A DNA stretch of 64,000 bases, from the NCBI GenBank assembly GCA_015062435.1, contig SUUR01000002.1:187-64186 (forward strand), in the 5' to 3' direction. This document shows positions 15,675-39,270 of this stretch, piece by piece. The notes beneath the pieces were generated by a model that had not been told where the DNA came from, did no database searches, and worked only from the letters and a program-made list of their open reading frames with translations. The DNA comes from Alphaproteobacteria bacterium. Lineage in GTDB: Bacteria; Pseudomonadota; Alphaproteobacteria; RF32; CAG-239. Positions within the stretch are counted from its first letter, which is position 1; each line of letters opens with the position of its first letter. Made by a program: the position numbers and the translations under genes.

Positions 15675-18377
15675 TTAGCTTGCTTTACGACAGCAACACC
15701 CACCATTATTCTCTCCACCAACTGTGCGAGATTTGCCAAATTTAACTGTAGCTTGAGCAGCAGCCAAACGAGCAACCGGCACACGATATGGAGAACAAGA
15801 TACATAGTCCAAACCAACTTGATGGAAGAACTCGATAGATTTCGGATCACCACCATGTTCACCGCAAACACCCAAGTGGAGGTCTGCATTGGTTTCACGA
15901 CCTTTACGACAAGCACGAGCAACGAGTTTACCCACACCGTCAACATCAATAGATGCAAACGGATCAGCCACATAAACACCTTTTGCACGATATTCATCAA
16001 GGATTGCACCGGTGTCATCACGGCTCATACCCAAAGTTGTTTGAGTAAGATCGTTTGTACCAAAACCGAAGAATGAAGCAGATTCTGCAATTTCTTCAGC
16101 CATGAGAGCAGCTCTTGGCAACTCAATCATAGTACCAACGATGTAGTTAACGGTTGCACCTTTTTCAGCAAATACTTGCTTAGCTGTGGTGTCGATAACA
16201 TCTTTAACCAAATCCAACTCTTTCTTAGAACCTGTCAACGGAACTTCGATTTCAGGAGTTACTTTAACACCTTCTGCTTGGCATTCCAAAGCAGCTTCCA
16301 AGATAGCACGAGCTTGCATTTCTGCAATTTCAGGATATGTAACGGCCAAACGACAACCACGATGTCCCAACATTGGGTTAGCTTCATGCAAAGCGGCAGC
16401 ACGTGTCTTAACTTGCTCTAAGCTTACACCCAATTTATTTGCCAATTCTTGCATTTCTGCTTCTGTATGAGGCAAGAATTCATGCAATGGCGGATCGAGC
16501 AAACGAACAGTAACCGGCAGACCGTCCATAATTTTGAACAAGTCTTTGAAGTCTTGTTTTTGATAAGGCAACAATTTTGCCAAAGCAGCACGACGACCTG
16601 CTTCATTATCAGACAAGATCATAGCACGCATATCGCCGATTCTGTTTGCATCAAAGAACATATGTTCGGTACGAGCCAAACCGATACCTTGAGCACCAAA
16701 GTCACGAGCAGTTTGAGCATCTTTTGGAGTTTCGGCATTAGCACGAACTTTCAATACTCTGATTTCATCAACCCAGCTCATCAACTTACCGAAGTTTCCG
16801 GTATTTGTATCAGCCTTAACGGTTGGAATTTCACCTTCAATGATTTGACCTTTAGCACCATCCAAAGATACCCAATCACCTTCTTTAATAACCACACCTG
16901 ACTTTGTAGTCATAGTTTTGTTAGCATAGTTGATTGTAATATCGTTAGAACCTGAAACGCAAGGAGTACCCATACCACGAGCCACAACGGCAGCGTGAGA
17001 AGTCATACCGCCACGAGCAGTAATCACACCTTGAGAAGCGTGCATACCGCCGATATCTTCCGGAGAAGTTTCGTTACGGATAAGGATAACTTTTTCACCT
17101 CTGTTAGCCCAAGCTTCTGCATCTTCTGCATTAAATACTGCACGACCAACAGCCGCACCCGGAGATGCCGGCAAACCGGTAGCAATAACATTTTTCTTAG
17201 CTTTAGGATCCAACATTGGGTGCAACAATTGGTCTAATTGATCCGCACCAACACGCATAATAGCTTCTTCTTTGGTAAGCATGCCTTCTTCAACCATTTC
17301 CACAGCCATACGAACAGCAGCAGCAGCGGTTCTCTTACCATTACGGCATTGCAACATCCAGAGTTTACCATGTTCAATAGTAAATTCCATATCTTGCATA
17401 TCTTTGTAGTGAGCTTCCAATTTATTACGAACATCAACCAATTGTTGATAGAGATGTGGCCATTTTTCTTCCAAAGAAGTACCATCACCCTTAGAAGCCA
17501 TAGGTTGCGGAGTACGAATACCGGCCACAACGTCTTCACCTTGAGCATTAATCAAATATTCACCGTAGTAAACATTTTCACCTGTTGCTGGGTCACGAGA
17601 GAAGCAAACACCGGTAGCGCAATCATCACCGGCATTACCAAACACCATTGTTTGAACGTTAACAGCTGTACCCCAGTCACCCGGAATATTGTTGAGTTTG
17701 CGGTAAGTAATAGCACGAGCAGCCATCCAAGAACCGAATACTGCACCGATACCTGCCCACAATTGCTCCCAAGGATCTTGCGGAACAACTTTGCCCAATT
17801 TAGCACCGATTTCTTTGTATTCTTTAACCAATTCTTTGAGGTCTTCAGCTGTCAAATCTGTATCAGAAGCATAACCTTTAGATTTTTTCATATTTTCCAA
17901 AGCTTCTTCGTAGAGATCGATATCAGCACCCAAAACCACATCAGAGAACATTTGCAAGAAACGACGATAAGAGTCATAAGCAAATCTTTCAGAGCCTGAA
18001 GCTTTAGCCAAAGCTTGAACAGTTTCATCATTCAAACCCAAGTTCAAAACGGTATCCATCATACCCGGCATAGAAACTCTTGCACCTGAACGAACAGAGA
18101 AAAGTAACGGGTTATTGGCATCGGCAAATTTTTTGCCCATAATTTTTTCAACTTCTGCCACAGCTGCACGAACTTGATCTTTCAAATCAGACGGATAAGT
18201 CTTATTGTTGTCATAGTAATATGTACAAACCTCAGTTGTAACAGTAAATCCCGGAGGCACAGGCATACCGACCACATTCATTTCGGCCAAGTTAGCACCT
18301 TTACCACCGAGGAGATTACGCATGCTGGCATCACCTTCGGCTTTGCCGTTTCCAAATGTATAAACCCATTTACTCAT
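15675..18377 (-). CDS. ppdK: Pyruvate, phosphate dikinase
   Basis: 900 aa; PEP-utilising enzyme blocks (GGMTSHAAVVARGMG with phospho-His, NLAEM, GICGEHGGDP-like CGEHGGDP). SD aaaaggag. Confidence 0.95.
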   Translation of the reverse strand: MSKWVYTFGNGKAEGDASMRNLLGGKGANLAEMNVVGMPVPPGFTVTTEVCTYYYDNNKTYPSDLKDQVRAAVAEVEKIMGKKFADANNPLLFSVRSGARVSMPGMMDTVLNLGLNDETVQALAKASGSERFAYDSYRRFLQMFSDVVLGADIDLYEEALENMKKSKGYASDTDLTAEDLKELVKEYKEIGAKLGKVVPQDPWEQLWAGIGAVFGSWMAARAITYRKLNNIPGDWGTAVNVQTMVFGNAGDDCATGVCFSRDPATGENVYYGEYLINAQGEDVVAGIRTPQPMASKGDGTSLEEKWPHLYQQLVDVRNKLEAHYKDMQDMEFTIEHGKLWMLQCRNGKRTAAAAVRMAVEMVEEGMLTKEEAIMRVGADQLDQLLHPMLDPKAKKNVIATGLPASPGAAVGRAVFNAEDAEAWANRGEKVILIRNETSPEDIGGMHASQGVITARGGMTSHAAVVARGMGTPCVSGSNDITINYANKTMTTKSGVVIKEGDWVSLDGAKGQIIEGEIPTVKADTNTGNFGKLMSWVDEIRVLKVRANAETPKDAQTARDFGAQGIGLARTEHMFFDANRIGDMRAMILSDNEAGRRAALAKLLPYQKQDFKDLFKIMDGLPVTVRLLDPPLHEFLPHTEAEMQELANKLGVSLEQVKTRAAALHEANPMLGHRGCRLAVTYPEIAEMQARAILEAALECQAEGVKVTPEIEVPLTGSKKELDLVKDVIDTTAKQVFAEKGATVNYIVGTMIELPRAALMAEEIAESASFFGFGTNDLTQTTLGMSRDDTGAILDEYRAKGVYVADPFASIDVDGVGKLVARACRKGRETNADLHLGVCGEHGGDPKSIEFFHQVGLDYVSCSPYRVPVARLAAAQATVKFGKSRTVGGENNGGCCCRKAS

Positions 18378-18428
18378 GGTTTAAGTTTCTCCTTTTAGTT
18401 AACATTAAATCAGGCAGATATTCCGCCC

Positions 18429-18447
18429 GACGAAAAATTTATTCGTC
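18429..18447. promoter_or_regulatory. Inverted repeat GACGAA-N7-TTCGTC upstream of ppdK (possible operator)
   Basis: gacgaaaaatttattcgtc lies about 50-70 nt upstream of the ppdK start codon. Function unknown. Confidence 0.25.
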
Positions 18448-18530
18448 AATACGTTATACTATTGATTCCGATTCTACAAGCAAAAAGTACAGTACTAACA
18501 CCCTCCCCCTTCTTCGTCATTTTTTATTAT

Positions 18531-18650
18531 CATACTCCGGCTCCCCTTCTCTGTCATACTCCGGCTCTCCTTCTCTGTCATACTCCGGCTCTCCTTCTTT
18601 GTCATACTCCGCCTCTCCTTCTCTGTCATACTTCGCCTCCCCTTCTCTGT
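18531..18650. repeat. Tandem array, 5 x 24 bp (catactccggctcyccttctytgt)
   Basis: Units at 18531, 18555, 18579, 18603 and 18627. Each starts with the 5' arm of the hairpin that terminates the array. Confidence 0.9.
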
Positions 18651-18720
18651 CATACTCCGGCTTGACCGGAGTATCTTCCCTTTAGTTTCCTGAGATTATC
18701 CGAACAAGTCGGATAATGAT
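18649..18720 (+). repeat. Double-hairpin dispersed element, copy A (about 72 bp)
   Basis: gtcatactccgg-cttga-ccggagtatc, 19-nt linker, attatccga-acaag-tcggataat. Homologous copies at 23253-23326 and 23746-23819 (reverse orientation) and 36779-36850. Confidence 0.85.
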
Positions 18721-18754
18721 AGATAATGATTTTGTCACCTCAAGCCTCCCTTTT

Positions 18755-18824
18755 TGTCATTCCGAGCCTCTCTTTTGTCATTCCGAGCCTCTCTTTTGTC
18801 ATTCCGAGCTTGTCGAGGAATCCC
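18755..18824. repeat. Tandem 21-bp units (tgtcattccgagcctctcttt x2) ending in tgtcattccgagcttgtcgaggaatc
   Basis: Direct reading of 18755-18775, 18776-18796 and 18797-18824. Confidence 0.8.
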
Positions 18825-19137
18825 AATAGATGTTTCGACTTCGCTCAACATGACAATTAGCGATATTTTCACCCCCACCTTAATCCTCTCCCATCTAAGG
18901 GAAGAAAATATAAAGCACATTCCTCTTAATTTTAAGAAGAAGTAAAAATCCCCCTCCTCACTTCCGAGTCGGACAACTTGCACCACAGAGCCAATTAGAC
19001 AAAATCGATTCGCATAAAGATTCACAAAACAAAGACATAGATTCACCCGACTCCTTTCATTTGTTTTATTTCGGCTATTTTCGCAACTGATTTTCCCTAC
19101 AAAATCACTAAAAAACAAACCATAAACCCATTTTTTG

Positions 19138-19165
19138 TTGCCAAAAATCACAAACGTGCTATAAT
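19138..19165 (+). promoter_or_regulatory. Near-consensus sigma70 promoter in the non-coding zone
   Basis: TTGCCA (19138-19143), 16 nt, TGcTATAAT (-10 at 19160-19165). Confidence 0.45.
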
Positions 19166-19258: not shown

Positions 19259-19567
19259 GAAGATAGACTGATTAATTTTATTTTGATATGAGGCCCTTAT
19301 CATAACGTTGATAAGGTAAAGGTAAAAAAAACTAGTAAAAATATAAATTCCCCAAAGATGATTAGAAATAATCACATTTATTCACTGTTTTACAATTAAC
19401 ATTTTAGCAATTTCTCAAGTCATGGAGATAGGAACAGACCAGGTCTGGTGCCGATGATTGCGATGTTTTTTGTGTTCGGTGTCTAAATGATTTTTATGAT
19501 TCTGCGGGGGCTAAAGAGGGAATGGAATGTGATACTAGCACAAACCTATTACCTCAAAAAAATTGAC

Positions 19568-22198
19568 ATGAGACAGATGATGAACATCCTCATGACTTTG
19601 GCTACTTTGGTGGTAGCACTCCTCTCACAATCATGTGAGAAAATGTCAACCGGAACTGCAGAAATGCAGAATAAGGTTGACATGACTGTAAAAAAAGTCA
19701 CAATCCGTGACACTATTACAGTCACCGAGATAGTGATCCAGAAGGACACTATCATTCTACCAGGAGACACCATTATCTCAGTGGTAGAAAAAGAAGTTAT
19801 TAAGTACATCACTGTACACGATACAGTGACTGTAGAGAATAACTTCACCGGTCACCGAACTGGATCCCCATTGGTAACCGGCAAGAGGGTTGCTACCCTG
19901 CCTGAATTCACGTTTGTGGATGGTAAATTGGTAGAAACCAACTACCTGACTGCGAATTTTAAATTCGAAGTCAAAGCTAGCAACCCGATAGAGGTACCAA
20001 GTGAGCCAACACTTGTTTCTACCTCTGCAACTATCAGTGGCAAAAACTTCTCCTACAAATATTATGCCGGAGAAAATGTCAATGACAGTTGGAAAGTTAC
20101 ATCGGACAACCGAGTTGCTTTCCAAACTCAGAATGGTATACAATATTACACCATTCCTGAGTACACTCCAGTTTCATTGGCTTTTTACAACGCCAGTGAC
20201 AAAAAATGGGAACATTTGGCAGCTGCCACCATCAACAATATTATTCAGGACAGCGACATCCAAGAGCTTTACATTAAAGCAAAGGACGAGCCGAAACCTG
20301 AATACAAGCTCATCATTAACCACAAGAGCGCAAAGGTGAACGCATCTGCTATGCAGATTGTCGATACTCACAACGCATATCTTGTTGATAACGACAAAGT
20401 TGTTGAGACTGATACATACGATGCACTGCATCAGGTATCATTCACTCAATCTGCACAGGTTGAGTACAACGTGGCAAAAGAAATGGAACAAGCGTCTTTC
20501 ACCATTACCAACGGTATGGTGAAAGTGAATAACATAATTTTCAAAGTCAGTGTTAAAACCGCTGACTGTGATGCTGTTACAATGGATACCAACAATACCA
20601 CATATTGCCATCCGGCATTCCCTGTGGACGGTGCCGTAAAAGCTCTAAATTGTTGTTCACTTGAGGGCAAAACCCTCAAGACTAAAACCATCACCGACAA
20701 CGAGTTGCCTGGTGAAATAATAATTGGTGATAATGACGAAGATACTGTCACAATCCCTATCGTTATCGAGGTTGTTCCTCCTACCACCCCTGCAGACGTC
20801 CACGATGTGGAGTTTGCAGAAGAAGCTCTAGTCACTTCCCCCAACTTTTTAACCTTAATCGCATATCCAACAATTAACGGTGTGCGTACAGGGGAAGAAG
20901 TTGAATTAAAGGACTCATTCTCAGGATCATTGACAGCAGGTGCGCAGATTAACAAGACCTCTAAAGGTTCTGTTACTCTAAATAGCACAACTGCTATGAT
21001 TTCTGATAATAATGCCATTTTCACTTACATTATAGAAAGTGAAACAACTGATGGCATTTGGAAATGGTCCATTAAAAATGAGGGGACATTCACCTATAAA
21101 AGGAATGGTGTGAACAAAACTGTTACCAGACCGATTAAGGCTGACGTTGCAGTTAAATCAACATCATTCACTGCTGACAATGGCACATACCGCAACACAG
21201 CATCTTTGTATGCTAACGGTTTCGCCATCGATGCAGATACACAGGTGATAAAAATTACCCCACCAACTGTAAGAAGGGACAGCACTTATTCTGCAGGCAC
21301 TCCTTACAGTGCGACCAAAGCTAAAGTCATTAGAACAGTATACGCTAACGGCCAATTTGAGTCTACTAAAGACATCTATGTTGACTATGTAGTTGATTTT
21401 GATTGTGGAGCAAAAGAGACAATCCCAAACATGTCTCAGCTCAATTATGGCTCAGCCATTAGTGCTAAGGTTGGTAGCAACCCGATTGCGTTGAACATAC
21501 ACAGATTCAACGCAATTGTAGATGTTCCTTCGAAACTCAATTTTGTAGATGACGGTAAGAGTCACACTGTTGACTTCACCTACTCTACACTTGTTATTGA
21601 AAGTAATGGTAACATTACCAAAACTGACAATAGTACTTCTGAGTATCAGATTATAAACAACAAGCTTTACTTCAAGCTTGTTTGTGACGGTTTCACCGTT
21701 GCTACTGATACAAAGGAGATTGTGCAGAAGAAGGAAATACCATCGATTAAGCCTCTAATCGATGGGTATACAGCCATTGAGGCATACATCACCAATTGTT
21801 TCCATACAGAGGGAACAACGCAAATAAGTGATGGTGCACACATGGCTATAGTCTTCAAGAAAAACATTGAAGGCTATAGTGGCAATGATAAATATATCAT
21901 TCGCCACGCAGACCCCGTAACTGCAAAACAGATAGGAAAGGATACTTATTTTTCATCAATTGATGAAACTCAAATAATATCCTTCATAACTGTCAACAAC
22001 ACTATGGAGCCTGCGTACTTAATTGATTATAAGAACGGAAATTGGCTATACCAATCTATTGCTAATTCAGCAATGGTGTACCCGATAGCCCTTCCTGAAA
22101 CCATCACTCAAAGATTTGATTTTACTGTAATCAAATCAAATAAACATGATGGTTATATAACAATTAAGTACAAAGAGATAACTCATAAATTAAATTAG
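19568..22198 (+). CDS. Large putative surface lipoprotein, unknown function (foreign-looking)
   Basis: 876 aa from ATG 19568 (MRQMMNILMTLATLVVALLSQSC). T/V/N/I-rich, probably beta-rich. No SD upstream. Visibly richer in G+C, with a different codon flavour from its neighbours. Confidence 0.7.
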   Translation: MRQMMNILMTLATLVVALLSQSCEKMSTGTAEMQNKVDMTVKKVTIRDTITVTEIVIQKDTIILPGDTIISVVEKEVIKYITVHDTVTVENNFTGHRTGSPLVTGKRVATLPEFTFVDGKLVETNYLTANFKFEVKASNPIEVPSEPTLVSTSATISGKNFSYKYYAGENVNDSWKVTSDNRVAFQTQNGIQYYTIPEYTPVSLAFYNASDKKWEHLAAATINNIIQDSDIQELYIKAKDEPKPEYKLIINHKSAKVNASAMQIVDTHNAYLVDNDKVVETDTYDALHQVSFTQSAQVEYNVAKEMEQASFTITNGMVKVNNIIFKVSVKTADCDAVTMDTNNTTYCHPAFPVDGAVKALNCCSLEGKTLKTKTITDNELPGEIIIGDNDEDTVTIPIVIEVVPPTTPADVHDVEFAEEALVTSPNFLTLIAYPTINGVRTGEEVELKDSFSGSLTAGAQINKTSKGSVTLNSTTAMISDNNAIFTYIIESETTDGIWKWSIKNEGTFTYKRNGVNKTVTRPIKADVAVKSTSFTADNGTYRNTASLYANGFAIDADTQVIKITPPTVRRDSTYSAGTPYSATKAKVIRTVYANGQFESTKDIYVDYVVDFDCGAKETIPNMSQLNYGSAISAKVGSNPIALNIHRFNAIVDVPSKLNFVDDGKSHTVDFTYSTLVIESNGNITKTDNSTSEYQIINNKLYFKLVCDGFTVATDTKEIVQKKEIPSIKPLIDGYTAIEAYITNCFHTEGTTQISDGAHMAIVFKKNIEGYSGNDKYIIRHADPVTAKQIGKDTYFSSIDETQIISFITVNNTMEPAYLIDYKNGNWLYQSIANSAMVYPIALPETITQRFDFTVIKSNKHDGYITIKYKEITHKLN

Positions 22199-22321
22199 TT
22201 ATCTCTTAAAATTAAAATAAAGTTAATCACCCTCCCAAACCTCAAACATAGAGGTGCGGGAGGATTAAATAACCACAGAGACTGCTGTGTGGGGTCTAAC
22301 GACTAACGGGCAGTTTTAAAA

Positions 22322-23014
22322 ATGAAAAAACTTTTTACATTAATATTGTGCGTAGCTTTCGCTATCTCAGCTAGCGCACAAACCCGCCAATATATTGACG
22401 GTAGAGGGCACGTTTTCAATGGAAACGATTGTTTCCTAGTAACCCTCTACGGAGGCATCCACGCATACGGAAATATTTCCGACAATGCGCAATGCATTGG
22501 TGGAGCCGAGTTGGTGTACAACCACTACGGCTTCCGCGCATCAATTGGCGGAGCCTACGGGGCACAAAATACAAGCCATGGGCAACTAGGCTTGTATTGG
22601 AACTTCACTGGAAATGCTAACATCAAACACCGAGCTTACATCGGTGTCACTGGTGGTTTTATCCAGTATGGAGGAATAATCGACCAGGACTTGTTGCTTA
22701 ACGGCGCAAGTACCCACGTTGATCTCAGTGAAGTGCACAACATCAAGTTGACACTCCCTGAGAACTCCATTGCCCCAACTGTAGGAGCAAGAGTTGGTAT
22801 CGATTGGCGATTGGGAAGATCTATATATCTTACCACCGCAGTTGAAGGTAGCCGTAACTTTATTAATAAGAAGGTTACTTTCAATTCCGTTGAGGCTCAA
22901 TTGCCTTTAGAAGACGGAAACATCGATATCAAGCTGAAAACTACGGACGACCCGGTTCCGGTAAATCACTGGGGATTGAAAGCAATGATTGGTATCTCCA
23001 TAAGATTGAAATAA
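22322..23014 (+). CDS. Outer-membrane beta-barrel protein (foreign-looking)
   Basis: Signal peptide MKKLFTLILCVAFAISASA/Q, alternating Gly/aromatic beta-strand pattern, 230 aa, no SD upstream. Confidence 0.65.
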   Translation: MKKLFTLILCVAFAISASAQTRQYIDGRGHVFNGNDCFLVTLYGGIHAYGNISDNAQCIGGAELVYNHYGFRASIGGAYGAQNTSHGQLGLYWNFTGNANIKHRAYIGVTGGFIQYGGIIDQDLLLNGASTHVDLSEVHNIKLTLPENSIAPTVGARVGIDWRLGRSIYLTTAVEGSRNFINKKVTFNSVEAQLPLEDGNIDIKLKTTDDPVPVNHWGLKAMIGISIRLK

Positions 23015-23091: not shown

Positions 23092-23326
23092 TGTCATTAC
23101 CCGATACCACTAACTGCAATTACCCGATACCACTAACTGTCATTATCCGGCTCAACTAACTGCAATTACCCGATACCACTAACCGTCATTATCCGGCTCG
23201 ACTAACTGTCATTACCCTACTTCACTAACTGCAATTACCCGACACCATTAACTGTCATTATCCGGCTCGACCGGATAATCTCAAGAAACTTAGAATAGAT
23301 ACTCCGGTCAAGCCGGAGTATGACAC
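23092..23326. repeat. 7 x 23-bp tandem units plus double-hairpin element, copy B
   Basis: Units start at 23092, 23115, 23138, 23161, 23184, 23207 and 23230 (tgtcattayccg..../tgcaattacccga....ctaac). Full hairpins follow: attatccggctcgaccggataat and atactccggtcaagccggagtat. Confidence 0.9.
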
Positions 23327-23394: not shown

Positions 23395-23682
23395 TTAACA
23401 AATACTACTATACAAATCATCCCAATTAGGATTCATTTTTTCTATTAAATCTATTTTCCAATTTCTATTATATTTTTTTAATTTTTTCTCCCTATATATT
23501 GCTTGTTCTTCACCATCAATAATCTCATAATACACTAACTTATCCAAATTATATTTAGCACTAAATCCTTGCAATATTTTATGTTTGTGTTCATAAATCC
23601 TACGACACAAATCATTAGTAACACCAATATATAATGTTCCATATCTTTTATTAGTAATAATATAAACGTACATTGTTTTCAT
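23395..23682 (-). CDS. GIY-YIG (URI-domain) nuclease, COG2827/UPF0213-like
   Basis: MKTMYVYIITNKRYGTLYIGVTNDLCRRIYEHK...VYYE...REKKLKKYNRNWK; 95 aa. The longer ORF start at 23727 reads into repeat DNA and was trimmed. Confidence 0.85.
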   Translation of the reverse strand: MKTMYVYIITNKRYGTLYIGVTNDLCRRIYEHKHKILQGFSAKYNLDKLVYYEIIDGEEQAIYREKKLKKYNRNWKIDLIEKMNPNWDDLYSSIC

Positions 23683-23699
23683 ATCTACTAACCCCAATC

Positions 23700-23823
23700 T
23701 GTCATTATCCGGCTCGACTAACTGCAATTACCCGACACCACTAACTGTCATTATCCGGCTCGACTGGATAATCTCAAGAAACTTAGAATAGATACTCCGG
23801 TCAAGCCGGAGTATGACACAAAA
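23700..23823. repeat. 2 x 23-bp units plus double-hairpin element, copy C
   Basis: 23723-23823 matches 23230-23330 at 99 of 101 positions (direct orientation). Confidence 0.9.
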
Positions 23824-35755: not shown

Positions 35756-36754
35756 TTAATTCTCCATACAATTAGTATGACTATTAAAAATATAATCAAC
35801 TAAACAACTTTTGGTAAGATTACCATTTTGATCTGTTTGGGTACAAACATGATATCCATCTTCACATTCCAAAACATAATATCTAGTATAACCACCACAC
35901 GTTACTTCTTCACAAATAGCACGCGAAGGACAATATACTTCAGCTCCTTCTTCCCATACACATTCCACACACTCATTACCGATAAGCTCCGAATGAATAT
36001 CACAAACTAACTTATATCGTGTTGGTAATCCGCAACCTGGCACACAATCATATACAGTTCCATGATCTCCTTCAATAGGTTTTTCTTCAAATGGATAATT
36101 TGAACAGTTATCAGGAAAACACTCACAATATCCTGAGCAATATCCGTTACGATATACCCCATCGCAATAAGATTCATCTTCACATTCGTTTGGAAAATAA
36201 TCACGCTCACAAAATTCTGAACACATATTTGAATCAGCAGAACAAGTATATCCTTCACAATATTGCCACTCTCCGCCACATTCATAATATCCGGCACAGG
36301 GATTATTATTTACACAAGTATTTCCACTCTGCGTATATCCGGAATTACAGCTATCAAGTTTATATTTAGTGACATTACCGCAAGTATAATTAGAACACGT
36401 TCCGTTAGCATCACAACTGCTTAAAGGATAATTTGTAAAATTACAGGCGTTGCAAGTTAAACCGTCGGAACTGAGTTCATAACTGTTTTGACAACCATCT
36501 AATTTGTATTGAGTTAATTCTAAGCAAACGCCACCATCAGGACATGTTTCTAAAGGATATTCACTAAATCCGGATTCCGGACAATAGAACAGAGTAGTAT
36601 CAAACGGACAGGCTATGGCTTTTTTCCCCTCACAATCGTTTGCGGATTTGATATATCCCATATCTGCACAAGACGGACGAACCATACAACTGTCTTGAGC
36701 CAAAGATGATGAAGATAAAAGTAGTATTGATACGCTTATAACATATTTGTTCAT
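35756..36754 (-). CDS. Secreted Cys-rich repeat protein (third member of the CA(E/D)MGY family)
   Basis: ATG 36754 with SD aggag. Signal peptide MNKYVISVSILLLSSSSLA/Q, SCADMGYIKSANDCEGKKAIACPFD, then repeated C..C...CG...YKLD.C..GY units with a very high Cys count. Confidence 0.75.
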   Translation of the reverse strand: MNKYVISVSILLLSSSSLAQDSCMVRPSCADMGYIKSANDCEGKKAIACPFDTTLFYCPESGFSEYPLETCPDGGVCLELTQYKLDGCQNSYELSSDGLTCNACNFTNYPLSSCDANGTCSNYTCGNVTKYKLDSCNSGYTQSGNTCVNNNPCAGYYECGGEWQYCEGYTCSADSNMCSEFCERDYFPNECEDESYCDGVYRNGYCSGYCECFPDNCSNYPFEEKPIEGDHGTVYDCVPGCGLPTRYKLVCDIHSELIGNECVECVWEEGAEVYCPSRAICEEVTCGGYTRYYVLECEDGYHVCTQTDQNGNLTKSCLVDYIFNSHTNCMEN

Positions 36755-36778
36755 CTCATGGCTCCTTTGTTTTTCTCT

Positions 36779-36873
36779 GTCATATTCCGACTTGATCGGA
36801 ATATCTCTCTTAAATTTCGTGAGATTGTCCGAACAAGTCGGACAATGACAGTTAGTGATGTCAGACAATGACA
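36779..36873 (+). repeat. Double-hairpin element copy D plus one 23-bp unit
   Basis: gtcatattccga-cttga-tcggaatatc, linker, attgtccga-acaag-tcggacaat, then gacagttagtgatgtcagacaatgaca. Sits 25 nt upstream of the Cys-rich gene start. Confidence 0.85.
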
Positions 36874-37034
36874 TTTACAGAGATGCTGTTTAAGATGTTT
36901 AACAAGTATAGAATTTGGATAAAATATAAGGATATATGCTTGTAAGGTCACAAAGCTTAAACAGCATCTGTAACTTCAAGTATATAAAATGTTTTATAGT
37001 ATGTCAATATATAGTTAAAAGTAGTGGACGAATT

Positions 37035-37089: not shown

Positions 37090-39270
37090 TTACTTTTTAC
37101 CATCTTTCATTGGTTTAGGTGTCTTATCCTTAGATGCATCAATAGCATCAGCCAATGGAGTTTCATAAGTTTTGAAACCTACCGGTTTACGAGTTCCAAA
37201 CTCTCTACCGCAAATTTCCAAACCCAAACTCTTTAACGCAGTTTCTACCGGTATAAACAAGTCCGGAGTTTCATCTGTTTTTTTGGTTTTATGAGCCATG
37301 CCCACAATATTTCCGTGATTATCAATTAATGCTCCACCGATAGTAACTGTTTGTACAAAAGTATCGACTATAATTTCGGCATCACCACTATCAGACCATC
37401 TATATCCGATAACTTTTCCTTCATTATCCAGATATCCCTCACCTTCACTATCCAAATCAAGTAATCCCAAAGTCATTAACATGTCTTTATTAACTTCCGG
37501 CAACTGCAAAGATAACGGAAGTGGAGTATAATTTGTTGGTGCATCTAACATTAACAGAGCCACATTTTTAGAAGGATTAACTCTCACGGCAACTGCCTTC
37601 ATATTTTTTCCGTTAATAGTTTGTATTTCAAAGTTATTATTATTTTTAATCATCAAATCAGCTGATGTCAGCACCAAATTATCAGCGATAATTAAACCGG
37701 AACCTTTAACTCCTTCAGCATTTTTAACTGCCACAACAGATGCTCTGACTTTATATAAGTTTTGTGGTTTCATATTTTCATATGGAGCCTGATTTTTAAT
37801 ACAAAAAGCATTATCAATACTGGCAAAAGAACTTTCCAACATTTCTTTACTGTCAATCAGCACTTTATCGTCAGTATCCAAAGGTACATCTACCCAATAA
37901 TCTTCAACTATTTTAACATTATCAGGCATATTTTCTGTTATATTGGTAACGATTGTTCTACTGTTTTCGTCTATTGCCACCATCGAACAATTGTCATTAA
38001 TTGATATAATCGCACCTGCACCGGCGATTCCGGAATTTTCCTCAATTTCAATCATTCTGCCGACAGGTTTTAAAGATTTTTCCAAAACATTAACAACACC
38101 GACTTCTGCCACCGGTTCCAAAGATGCCTCAGCCACATTCATAACGTCAACATCACCTATCGGCTCCAATGTCGTTTCAACAACATCAACATTCTCAACC
38201 TCTCCTACCGGCTCCAATGTTGTTTCTATAACATCAACCATTTCAACATCTGCAACCGGAACTCCGGCTACACCAGCGATTGTTTTCACCTCTGTTTGTG
38301 TTGGTATTTCAACTTTATCTGCCACACAACGTTGCAATTCTTCCACACCGGTCAACACATCATTATACTGTCCGGCAAAGGTTTTATTTTTCACCTCTTT
38401 ACCCAATAAATTAGCTTTTTGACGAATCAATTCTTCAGGCAATACACGTTGAGATACTGTATAATTAAAACAGCTTATTTCCGGTAATTTTGTTAAAGCA
38501 TCTTCAAAAGCTCTTTCCACTAACAAAGTCTCGCCTTTAGGTTCTCCTTCAGAAATCTGTCCATATCCGGTTGTCATTCCCTTACAATATACTTGTGTTT
38601 TATCCAAGCTCATCACTCGCCATACCACAGACATTTCTGATGATCCGCTACGTAATTTTTTCTGTTTAACATCACCCCAGTCAAATTCATCACATATATT
38701 CATAAAGTAATCTGTAATTTCTGCTGTAACAATATATTCAGGAGTATCTATTTTATCAGAATCCAAATAATAAGGATTAGATTTATCCACCACTACCGGA
38801 TAATAGTCATTCATTGTTTCAAAAAATACATCAAAGAACTTCATATCCTTTTGCATGGCTCGTCCTTCATTCAAAAATACATTTTTGCTTTCTCGACGAC
38901 ACCCGAAAATACGAAATTTATAATTACCTAATTTAGTATTATAATTTTCATAATCACCATTCTTACGGATTCTGAAATCTACATGCTCTAACTTTAGCGG
39001 AGCATAATTATTTCTGCTTTTATGCAAAGCCAAATATGCATCTTGATGCTCTTCATCAACAATTAAAGTTTGGTATTTATAGCCGGTATCTTCTATATAA
39101 GAAAAACGCTTAACCGGTTTTTTATTCATTGGCTCGCACATACAGTCAAACATACCCAGTGTAGATTCGCTTCCATCACACATACAAGGAATCAACTCCG
39201 GACTTTCTTTACTGCATGCTCCGACAAAAGCCAACACAGCCAACAGACTAACGCCCCAAACTTTTTTCAT
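37090..39270 (-). CDS. Lipoprotein with C-terminal degenerate trypsin-like (S1C-like) domain
   Basis: Lipobox FVGAC. The C-terminal region aligns by eye to DegP-type blocks, but with GSGLIIADNLVLTSADLM (His to Asp), NVALLML (Asp to Asn) and TIGGALID (Ser to Ile). Confidence 0.65.
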   Translation of the reverse strand: MKKVWGVSLLAVLAFVGACSKESPELIPCMCDGSESTLGMFDCMCEPMNKKPVKRFSYIEDTGYKYQTLIVDEEHQDAYLALHKSRNNYAPLKLEHVDFRIRKNGDYENYNTKLGNYKFRIFGCRRESKNVFLNEGRAMQKDMKFFDVFFETMNDYYPVVVDKSNPYYLDSDKIDTPEYIVTAEITDYFMNICDEFDWGDVKQKKLRSGSSEMSVVWRVMSLDKTQVYCKGMTTGYGQISEGEPKGETLLVERAFEDALTKLPEISCFNYTVSQRVLPEELIRQKANLLGKEVKNKTFAGQYNDVLTGVEELQRCVADKVEIPTQTEVKTIAGVAGVPVADVEMVDVIETTLEPVGEVENVDVVETTLEPIGDVDVMNVAEASLEPVAEVGVVNVLEKSLKPVGRMIEIEENSGIAGAGAIISINDNCSMVAIDENSRTIVTNITENMPDNVKIVEDYWVDVPLDTDDKVLIDSKEMLESSFASIDNAFCIKNQAPYENMKPQNLYKVRASVVAVKNAEGVKGSGLIIADNLVLTSADLMIKNNNNFEIQTINGKNMKAVAVRVNPSKNVALLMLDAPTNYTPLPLSLQLPEVNKDMLMTLGLLDLDSEGEGYLDNEGKVIGYRWSDSGDAEIIVDTFVQTVTIGGALIDNHGNIVGMAHKTKKTDETPDLFIPVETALKSLGLEICGREFGTRKPVGFKTYETPLADAIDASKDKTPKPMKDGKK
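38056..38247 (-). repeat. 4 x 48-nt in-frame tandem repeat (16-aa units VExVDVxETTLEPxGx)
   Basis: Residues 342-405 of the lipoprotein: VEMVDVIETTLEPVGE / VENVDVVETTLEPIGD / VDVMNVAEASLEPVAE / VGVVNVLEKSLKPVGR. Confidence 0.8.

Follow-up and report, generated by a model that had tools for sequence, protein, structure and literature searches.

The dispersed 72-bp double hairpin in this 64-kb window (the whole stretch of DNA that was analysed) is, judged from its sequence, a pair of inverted CGTC-tagged REPs equivalent to the Ssn-related motif (SRM), and the locus is a further example of the system described in 2013 (PMC3733652) and 2025 (PMC11893778). We consider it likely that the hairpin modules are the cognate sites of the Ssn-family nuclease encoded at 23395-23682 on the minus strand, which would cut them in single-stranded DNA. 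This reading draws on the anatomy of the repeat, the membership of hairpin and protein in known families, the association of gene and repeat across phyla, and covariation in the stems. Binding and cutting by the window Ssn, and any effect on DNA uptake or recombination, we infer by homology to the Neisseria and Wolbachia enzymes.

Anatomy of the repeat

A sequence-only reading of this DNA had described a REP/MITE-like family of four intergenic copies, each made of two hairpins joined by a linker of about 19 nt. Direct reading confirmed the four copies, whose coordinates now include the tags (Table 1), and the linker measures 19-20 nt. What had been missed is that the two hairpins of each element are inverted copies of one module, that arrays of half units abut every copy, and that copies B and C have a GIY-YIG gene between them. 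The module consists of an unpaired tag, a 9-bp stem starting AT, a 5-nt loop, the complementary arm and a short tail. The tags are outermost in all four intact copies, and the termini read TGTCAT...ATGACA. Seven of the eight window modules have the tag TGTC and one has TATC; every one of the eight has the 9-bp stem starting AT and a 5-nt loop (CTTGA, CTCGA or CTTGT). The tail reads CTT, CTC or CTA (CTN) in the window and CCAG in relatives.

Table 1. Tagged hairpins, half-unit arrays and the ssn gene in the 64-kb window
Feature	Coordinates	Strand	Details
Five half units, period 24	18528-18647	+	T(G/A)TC tag + ATACTCCGG arm + CTCTCCTTCTC filler; tag side of A hairpin 1
Copy A, head-to-head dimer	18648-18721	both	
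Copy A, first module		+	tag 18648-18651; stem 18652-18660/18666-18674; loop CTTGA
Copy A, linker	18675-18694		
Copy A, second module		-	stem 18695-18703/18709-18717; tag TATC 18718-18721
Two half units, period 21	18755-18796	+	TGTCATTCCGAGCCTCTCTTT; lead into decayed dimer
Decayed head-to-head dimer, second sequence type	18797-18855		TGTCATTCCGAGCTTGTCGAGGAAT ... ATGTTTCGACTTCGCTCAACATGACA
Seven half units, period 23	23092-23252	+	TGTCATTA(T/C)CCG... + CACTAAC; tag side of B hairpin 2
Copy B, head-to-head dimer	23253-23325		70 nt past ssn stop codon; + module 23253-23279; linker 23280-23298; - module 23299-23325
ssn	23395-23682	-	95-aa single-domain GIY-YIG nuclease of the Ssn family; start ATG 23682
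Two half units, period 23	23700-23745	+	between ssn start and copy C
Copy C, head-to-head dimer	23746-23818		upstream of ssn
Copy D, solitary head-to-head dimer	36778-36850		+ module 36778-36804; linker 36805-36823; - module 36824-36850
One half unit	36851-36873	-	TGTCATTGTCTGACATCACTAAC; tag side of D hairpin 2

The stems quoted earlier are exact, both for hairpin 1 (atactccgg/ccggagtat in A and atattccga/tcggaatat in D) and for hairpin 2 (attatccga/tcggataat in A, attgtccga/tcggacaat in D and attatccgg/ccggataat in B). The quoted changes preserve pairing and are compensatory, as had been proposed. When folded as single-stranded DNA, copies A-D gave z scores of -5.6 to -8.7, and none of 200 shuffles was as stable. 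Copy A folds into two 9-bp hairpins, and the fold of B, C and D is a single long hairpin; since hairpin 2 repeats hairpin 1 in inverted orientation, either fold is available to each copy.

A scan for a tag, an 8-9-bp stem and a 4-5-nt loop found seven modules in the window, as against 0.9 in 200 shuffles. A covariance model run on the whole 64-kb window scored the eight modules, all of them in its training set, at 38-47 bits. It also recovered a decayed pair at 18797-18826(+)/18825-18855(-), at 18.5 and 12 bits. In this fifth dimer five of 8-9 stem pairs are left in each hairpin, and the fold has a z of -2.9. With filters off, the model found nothing further in the window, a 64-kb part of a 92-kb metagenome contig, which contains four intact dimers and one decayed one. 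Rfam at gathering thresholds reported only a tRNA in the window, and a blastn search of the copy A region against plasmids returned no match. Further copies are present in relatives.

All copies are intergenic, as the earlier reading held, once spurious ORFs that run through the repeats are set aside (18356-18685(+), 18735-19151(-) and 36755-36874(-)). Their translations contain 'SYSGSPSL' five times and 'ARNDKRE' three times, the latter in a called 138-aa gene of the source record. Promoter-like sequences, TTGAGA-16-GATAAT, occur at 23777-23750(-) and 23284-23257(-), with a weaker one at 18690-18717(+). Each combines the last part of the linker with the 3' arm of hairpin 2 and points outward; in copy C the sequence aims at ssn.

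Covariation of the stems

The proposal that structure rather than sequence is constrained also held in a larger set of hairpins, picked without regard to pairing. The set comprised 32-mers from 1.28 Mb with [CT]GTCA, eight free bases and CTTGA. Among 52 distinct hairpins, 41 had at least eight of nine Watson-Crick pairs, with 20 different 5' arms, and the remainder were mostly array half units or chance matches. Pairing cells made up 87%, compared with 66.7% in shuffles, and changes on both sides were found at eight of the nine stem pairs. The covariation score was 0.518 against 0.186 in shuffles, a value that none of 500 shuffles reached; this control ignores relatedness, and slid controls, which retain it, scored at most 0.14. 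The hairpins come from many lineages, and covariation across lineages argues for continuing constraint.

Could the hairpins nevertheless be inert relics of past amplification, with their palindromy kept by repair or recombination between the arms and a nuclease that no longer acts? Some decay is visible, in the copy at 18797-18855, in one G-T mismatch in a stem of copy C, and in half units without a 3' arm, which are common. However, the eight modules keep eight or nine of nine pairs though their stem sequences differ, ssn is an intact ORF that retains every family-invariant residue, and the covariation extends across lineages. We regard relics as very unlikely.

Relation to known repeat families

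In a CGTC-tagged REP, one end of the palindrome carries an unpaired tag, which is often TGTC or CCTC; the stem has 8-9 bp and opens with an A-T and a T-A pair, the loop has 4-5 nt, and the unpaired 3' tail of 3 nt is CCA in most (PMC3733652). Most of their dimers are head-to-head, the tags facing outward and the spacer measuring about 20-100 bp; their hosts are mainly Alphaproteobacteria, with many dispersed copies per genome, and the superfamily takes in Neisseria dRS3, Rickettsia RPE-4 and RPE-6, and Wolbachia repeats (PMC3733652). The window repeat shares with this superfamily the CGTC/TGTC tag, the geometry of families 3 and 4 (9-bp AT stem, 5-nt loop), the head-to-head order, a conserved spacer, heterodimers and mainly alphaproteobacterial hosts. 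It differs in that its tail is not CCA and its 19-20-nt spacer lies at the short end of the 20-100 bp range. Moreover, Di Nocera 2013 reports no dedicated enzyme, whereas an Ssn gene is adjacent in the window.

The REP/MITE-like label was correct, with a refinement: the element fits the definition of CGTC-tagged REPs, and it is not MITE-like in the strict sense, as neither a target-site duplication nor a transposase was seen. Could the element still be a classical miniature transposon (MITE or REPIN) whose transposase, perhaps a tyrosine transposase of the RAYT/IS200 type, is encoded at another site? The topology matches that of a REPIN, in that two inverted palindromic repeats are closely spaced and can fold into a single long hairpin, and the termini resemble inverted repeats. 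REPIN-RAYT systems, reportedly described by Bertels and Rainey (2011) and Nunvar (2010), are also alike in having a single-copy nuclease gene flanked by its own repeats and in the likely recognition of hairpins in single-stranded DNA. To our knowledge, transposition has been shown for REPINs, not for SRMs. RAYT-associated REPs have a GTAG tag and an HUH tyrosine transposase of the IS200/IS605 type, whereas the window has a YGTC tag (TGTC) and a GIY-YIG protein; the gene that is consistently adjacent is this nuclease and not a transposase. We read the flanks of A, B, C and D and found no target-site duplication, and 'no dedicated transposase' is linked to CGTC REPs (PMC3733652). Movement by such a transposase is thus highly improbable.

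Integron-like attC sites, which bound gene cassettes, offer another comparison, being conserved in structure and variable in sequence. The C region with its half units is 92% identical to the B region over a 134-nt direct repeat offset by 493 nt, and such repeats on either side of a small ORF give a cassette-like X-gene-X arrangement. We give this explanation almost no credence, since RYYYAAC/GTTRRRY core sites are absent from the element ends, no integrase is adjacent, and the flanked gene itself encodes a nuclease that matches the repeats. The preferred reading, in which the modules would be sites of that nuclease, is taken up in the next section.

The ssn gene and its product

SsnA of N. 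meningitidis, a 94-aa GIY-YIG protein, binds its hairpin, NTS (CGTCATTCCCGCGMAVGCGGGAATCYRG), only when the DNA is single-stranded; cleavage likewise needs single-stranded DNA and falls a few nucleotides 5' of the hairpin, and RNA is not a substrate (PMC11893778). The mutants Y6A, Y17A and E64A are inactive, and four Ssn homologues each cut their own motif (PMC11893778). The window protein has PF01541 over residues 4-77 (E 4.8e-14) and no second domain. We compared it with an N. gonorrhoeae orthologue, standing in for N. meningitidis SsnA itself, and found 51% identity over 90 of 94 residues, ungapped (E 3e-35). The gonococcal ORF, from NZ_CP119140.1, is taken to be the SsnA orthologue from its size (94 aa), its Y6/Y17/E64 residues and the 10 exact NTS copies within 3.3 kb. 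Residues Y7, Y18 and E65 of the window Ssn align with gonococcal Y6, Y17 and E64 and are invariant in 20 homologues. By the published definition of the family, homology to SsnA over >75% of its length with E < 1e-10 (PMC11893778), the window protein is an Ssn, with the gonococcal orthologue as reference. PLSDB files two 2.17-Mb N. gonorrhoeae records, NZ_CP119140.1 and NZ_CP119142.1, as plasmids; from their size they are probably whole chromosomes.

The published SRM pattern, HGTCWYN(0-2)YYVSBRHN(0-5)WNVSBRGN(0-2)RNCYNB (PMC11893778), has exact matches in the window at 18648-18678, 23295-23325 and 23788-23818, three compared with 0.03 in shuffles. These are hairpin 1 of A, B and C, and the B and C matches flank ssn on either side. 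Hairpin 1 of D has the pattern with one substitution, and none of the four hairpin-2 modules fits it. Given this misfit and the CTN tail, the specificity of the window enzyme may differ, or some modules may be inactive.

The window therefore resembles the Ssn-NTS/SRM system in its small GIY-YIG protein (94-95 aa) with Tyr, Tyr and Glu at the same positions, and in a gene flanked on both sides by YGTCAT-tagged hairpins. There are differences as well. The window stem has 9 bp and is AT-richer (ATACTCCGG), whereas NTS is ATTCCCGCG with a 4-nt loop, and the window tail is CTN where that of NTS is CCAG. The host is an uncultured low-GC gut-type alphaproteobacterium, and its repeats include long half-unit arrays.

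Other searches with the window Ssn gave no match in phage genomes (tblastn) or in a PDB sequence search, and the NCBIfam search gave just a sub-threshold match to a group I intron endonuclease. The protein collection contains 2813 relatives at E <= 1e-5. Many of the 120 matches listed are on contigs under 2 kb, and at several of the fetched loci at most a few hundred bases separate the gene from the nearest contig end, as expected since the genes are embedded in repeats. Homologues also occur on some plasmids, and their neighbourhoods differ between genomes.

Gene and hairpins across phyla

How general is the pairing of gene and hairpin? A degenerate SRM lies at <=5 kb from 71% of homologue genes, and on both sides in 42%; the NTS-ssnA-NTS layout has been likened to an insertion sequence (PMC11893778). 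Species-representative genomes contain >595 Ssn relatives, and the 80 best of these come from Bradyrhizobium, Tardiphaga, Rhizobium, Shinella, Maritalea, Micavibrio and Azospirillum, and from Rickettsiales, Parcubacteria, Planctomycetes, Leptospiraceae, Flavobacteriaceae and others. Among these best 80 of >595, YGTCAY-tagged hairpins lie <=150 nt upstream of the gene in 45 and downstream in 50, at a median distance from tag to gene of 42-46 nt. A looser count, of 'structural modules' at 73 of the 80 loci, is an upper bound that includes chance GC-rich hairpins. The commonest layout has the gene inside a head-to-head dimer (F-gene-R; 26/80), the tags lying 46 nt ahead of the start codon and 42 nt beyond the stop. 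The layout of the window, a gene between two dimers (R-gene-F), occurs at 3 of the 80 loci, and the hairpins nearest to the gonococcal gene have the same orientation, dimer-gene-dimer.

The same hairpins flank closer homologues in gut Alphaproteobacteria. At these loci and at that of a 'Deltaproteobacteria' MAG, half-unit arrays end in GTCAT-stem-CTTGA-stem'-ATCCAG, followed by a linker and an inverted module, and the stems vary by genome (ctccgg, ccccggg, ctcggg, cccccgg).

Genomic setting

The sequence-only reading had placed three of the copies at the border of a foreign-looking island (19487-23014). Copies A and B bracket the two large ORFs of this segment (903 and 230 aa), which have no Pfam match and no counterpart beside the AI-2E gene in 80 related loci. 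The segment may be foreign: it is absent beside AI-2E in relatives, but fetched strain contigs are 99.9-100% identical to the window by blastn. We fetched 80 AI-2E relatives (protein 43-78% identical), and the order PTA-NDK-p348-AI2E is kept in most of those with enough upstream sequence. None of the 80 has ssn beside AI-2E, the sole ssn found (in L102) being about 5 kb away, upstream of the AI-2E gene, and dimers are present at the site in only one (L043). Because syntenic relatives are without ssn there, and only L043 has dimers, the block is not ancestral at this site and was gained in this lineage. A clean empty site was not found among these relatives, which share PTA-NDK-AI2E and diverge directly after AI-2E.

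Copy D does adjoin the start of a gene for a Cys-rich protein, as had been noted at a distance of 25 nt; with the start at ATG 36754, after AAAGGAG, and not at 36874, D ends 23 nt upstream and probably lies in the 5' UTR. The module of this protein, C..MGY......C.G......CPFD, occurs at 2-94, 349-441 and 776-1023 and in the Cys-rich secreted protein at 35756-36754(-); these proteins look like a paralogous family, and a 72-nt tandem repeat lies near the modules. A 48-nt in-frame tandem repeat (2.4 copies, 38147-38259) lies inside the gene for a 726-aa trypsin-like protease.

Do the hairpins serve mainly in RNA, whether to terminate transcription, to stabilise mRNA or to regulate from the 5' UTR, roles proposed for REPs, with the nuclease incidental? 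All copies are intergenic, and D would be transcribed because it lies between a promoter-like TTGACA-17-TATACT (37007-36979) and the start of the Cys-rich gene. Many REPs are transcribed, as Di Nocera 2013 argued (PMC3733652), and one of the eight modules (hairpin 1 of A) passes a loose terminator pattern. However, the other seven have no T run, B and C have no terminator match, and the 726-aa gene upstream of D has a canonical terminator of its own. An RNA role would also leave unexplained the conserved unpaired tag, the fixed orientation and the tight association of gene and repeat across phyla, and SsnA is inactive on RNA (PMC11893778). We consider it unlikely as the main function, and RNA effects may be a side consequence. 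Of the earlier claim that DNA or RNA structure is selected, the structural constraint stands, and the structure is most likely a hairpin in single-stranded DNA, not RNA.

Half-unit arrays and rearrangements

In the window, every intact copy and the decayed pair are abutted on the tag side by half units, each consisting of a tag, a 5' arm and a pyrimidine-rich filler. Over all loci, the window included, the period is 18-31 nt. The bias is directional: around 273 modules, orphan 5' halves number 75 on the 5' side of complete hairpins and 11 on the 3' side, and orphan 3' halves number 5 and 6 on the 5' and 3' sides of complete modules. Half-unit arrays are found in unrelated phyla too (loci L120, L131, L175, L172, L108, L013, L043 and L185), with one orphan half at the gonococcal locus (L185). 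Half, truncated or tandem half units are not mentioned in the main texts of PMC3733652 and PMC11893778, and arrays on the tag side of the hairpin seem to be an undescribed detail. Two simpler descriptions were rejected. A half unit is not in general a module minus its 3' arm, which by eye matches at 20/24 and 20/23 positions in the window arrays but fails in the arrays of other genomes. Nor are the arrays CRISPR-like: they have no unique spacers, the 'spacer' being the constant pyrimidine-rich filler.

Neisserial intergenic mosaic elements, in which dRS3 bounds arrays of repeat units, are similar in that tagged hairpins cluster between genes near those for variable or surface proteins. In Neisseria, however, complete hairpins are interleaved with other repeat families, whereas the window arrays are tandem half units of the hairpin itself.

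The arrays change between strains, their length differing among those with identical Ssn protein. Two such strains differ in half-unit copy number and also in the orientation of 122 nt that lie between inverted tagged hairpins (L014 3382-3503 and L016 3366-3486; 97.5% identical in reverse).

What might the arrays be? That they are an undescribed footprint or working part of Ssn systems is a possibility that we advance tentatively. They may be scars left where Ssn repeatedly cut 5' of the tag and repair or slippage ensued; if so, they would reveal how the repeats multiply. Alternatively, they may serve as alternative 5' arms that pair with a single 3' arm and shift the cut site, which is plausible because split half sites support cleavage in trans (PMC11893778).

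Discussion

How would the system work? Whenever the DNA is single-stranded, in replication, in repair or on entering the cell, the strand with a 5' tag would fold into a hairpin. Ssn would bind the stem together with the base that directly follows on its 3' side, and would cut a few nucleotides 5' of the tag. With one module per strand in the dimer, either strand could be cut. Stem sequence could then drift while pairing is kept, and compensatory changes would arise because the stem is needed while its sequence has some freedom. Gene and repeats would travel and persist jointly as a semi-selfish unit, and local recombination would be shaped too. In Neisseria, the Ssn system lowers transformation by NTS-bearing DNA (PMC11893778).

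As a further Ssn/SRM (CGTC-REP) example in an uncultured low-GC alphaproteobacterium, the locus by itself changes little; the repeat is real, structured and of modest interest. Nonetheless, a single locus here ties the 'orphan' CGTC REPs of 2013 to the Ssn nuclease of 2025. The arrays also mislead annotation: spurious ORFs arising from them appear as genes in the source record. Site-specific cutters of single-stranded DNA could gain a further member from this nuclease/hairpin pair, whose 9-bp stem is divergent and AT-rich and whose tail is not CCA. Finally, the half-unit arrays are one lead worth following: together with the strain inversion bounded by inverted hairpins, these directional arrays bear on how such repeats spread and rearrange genomes.
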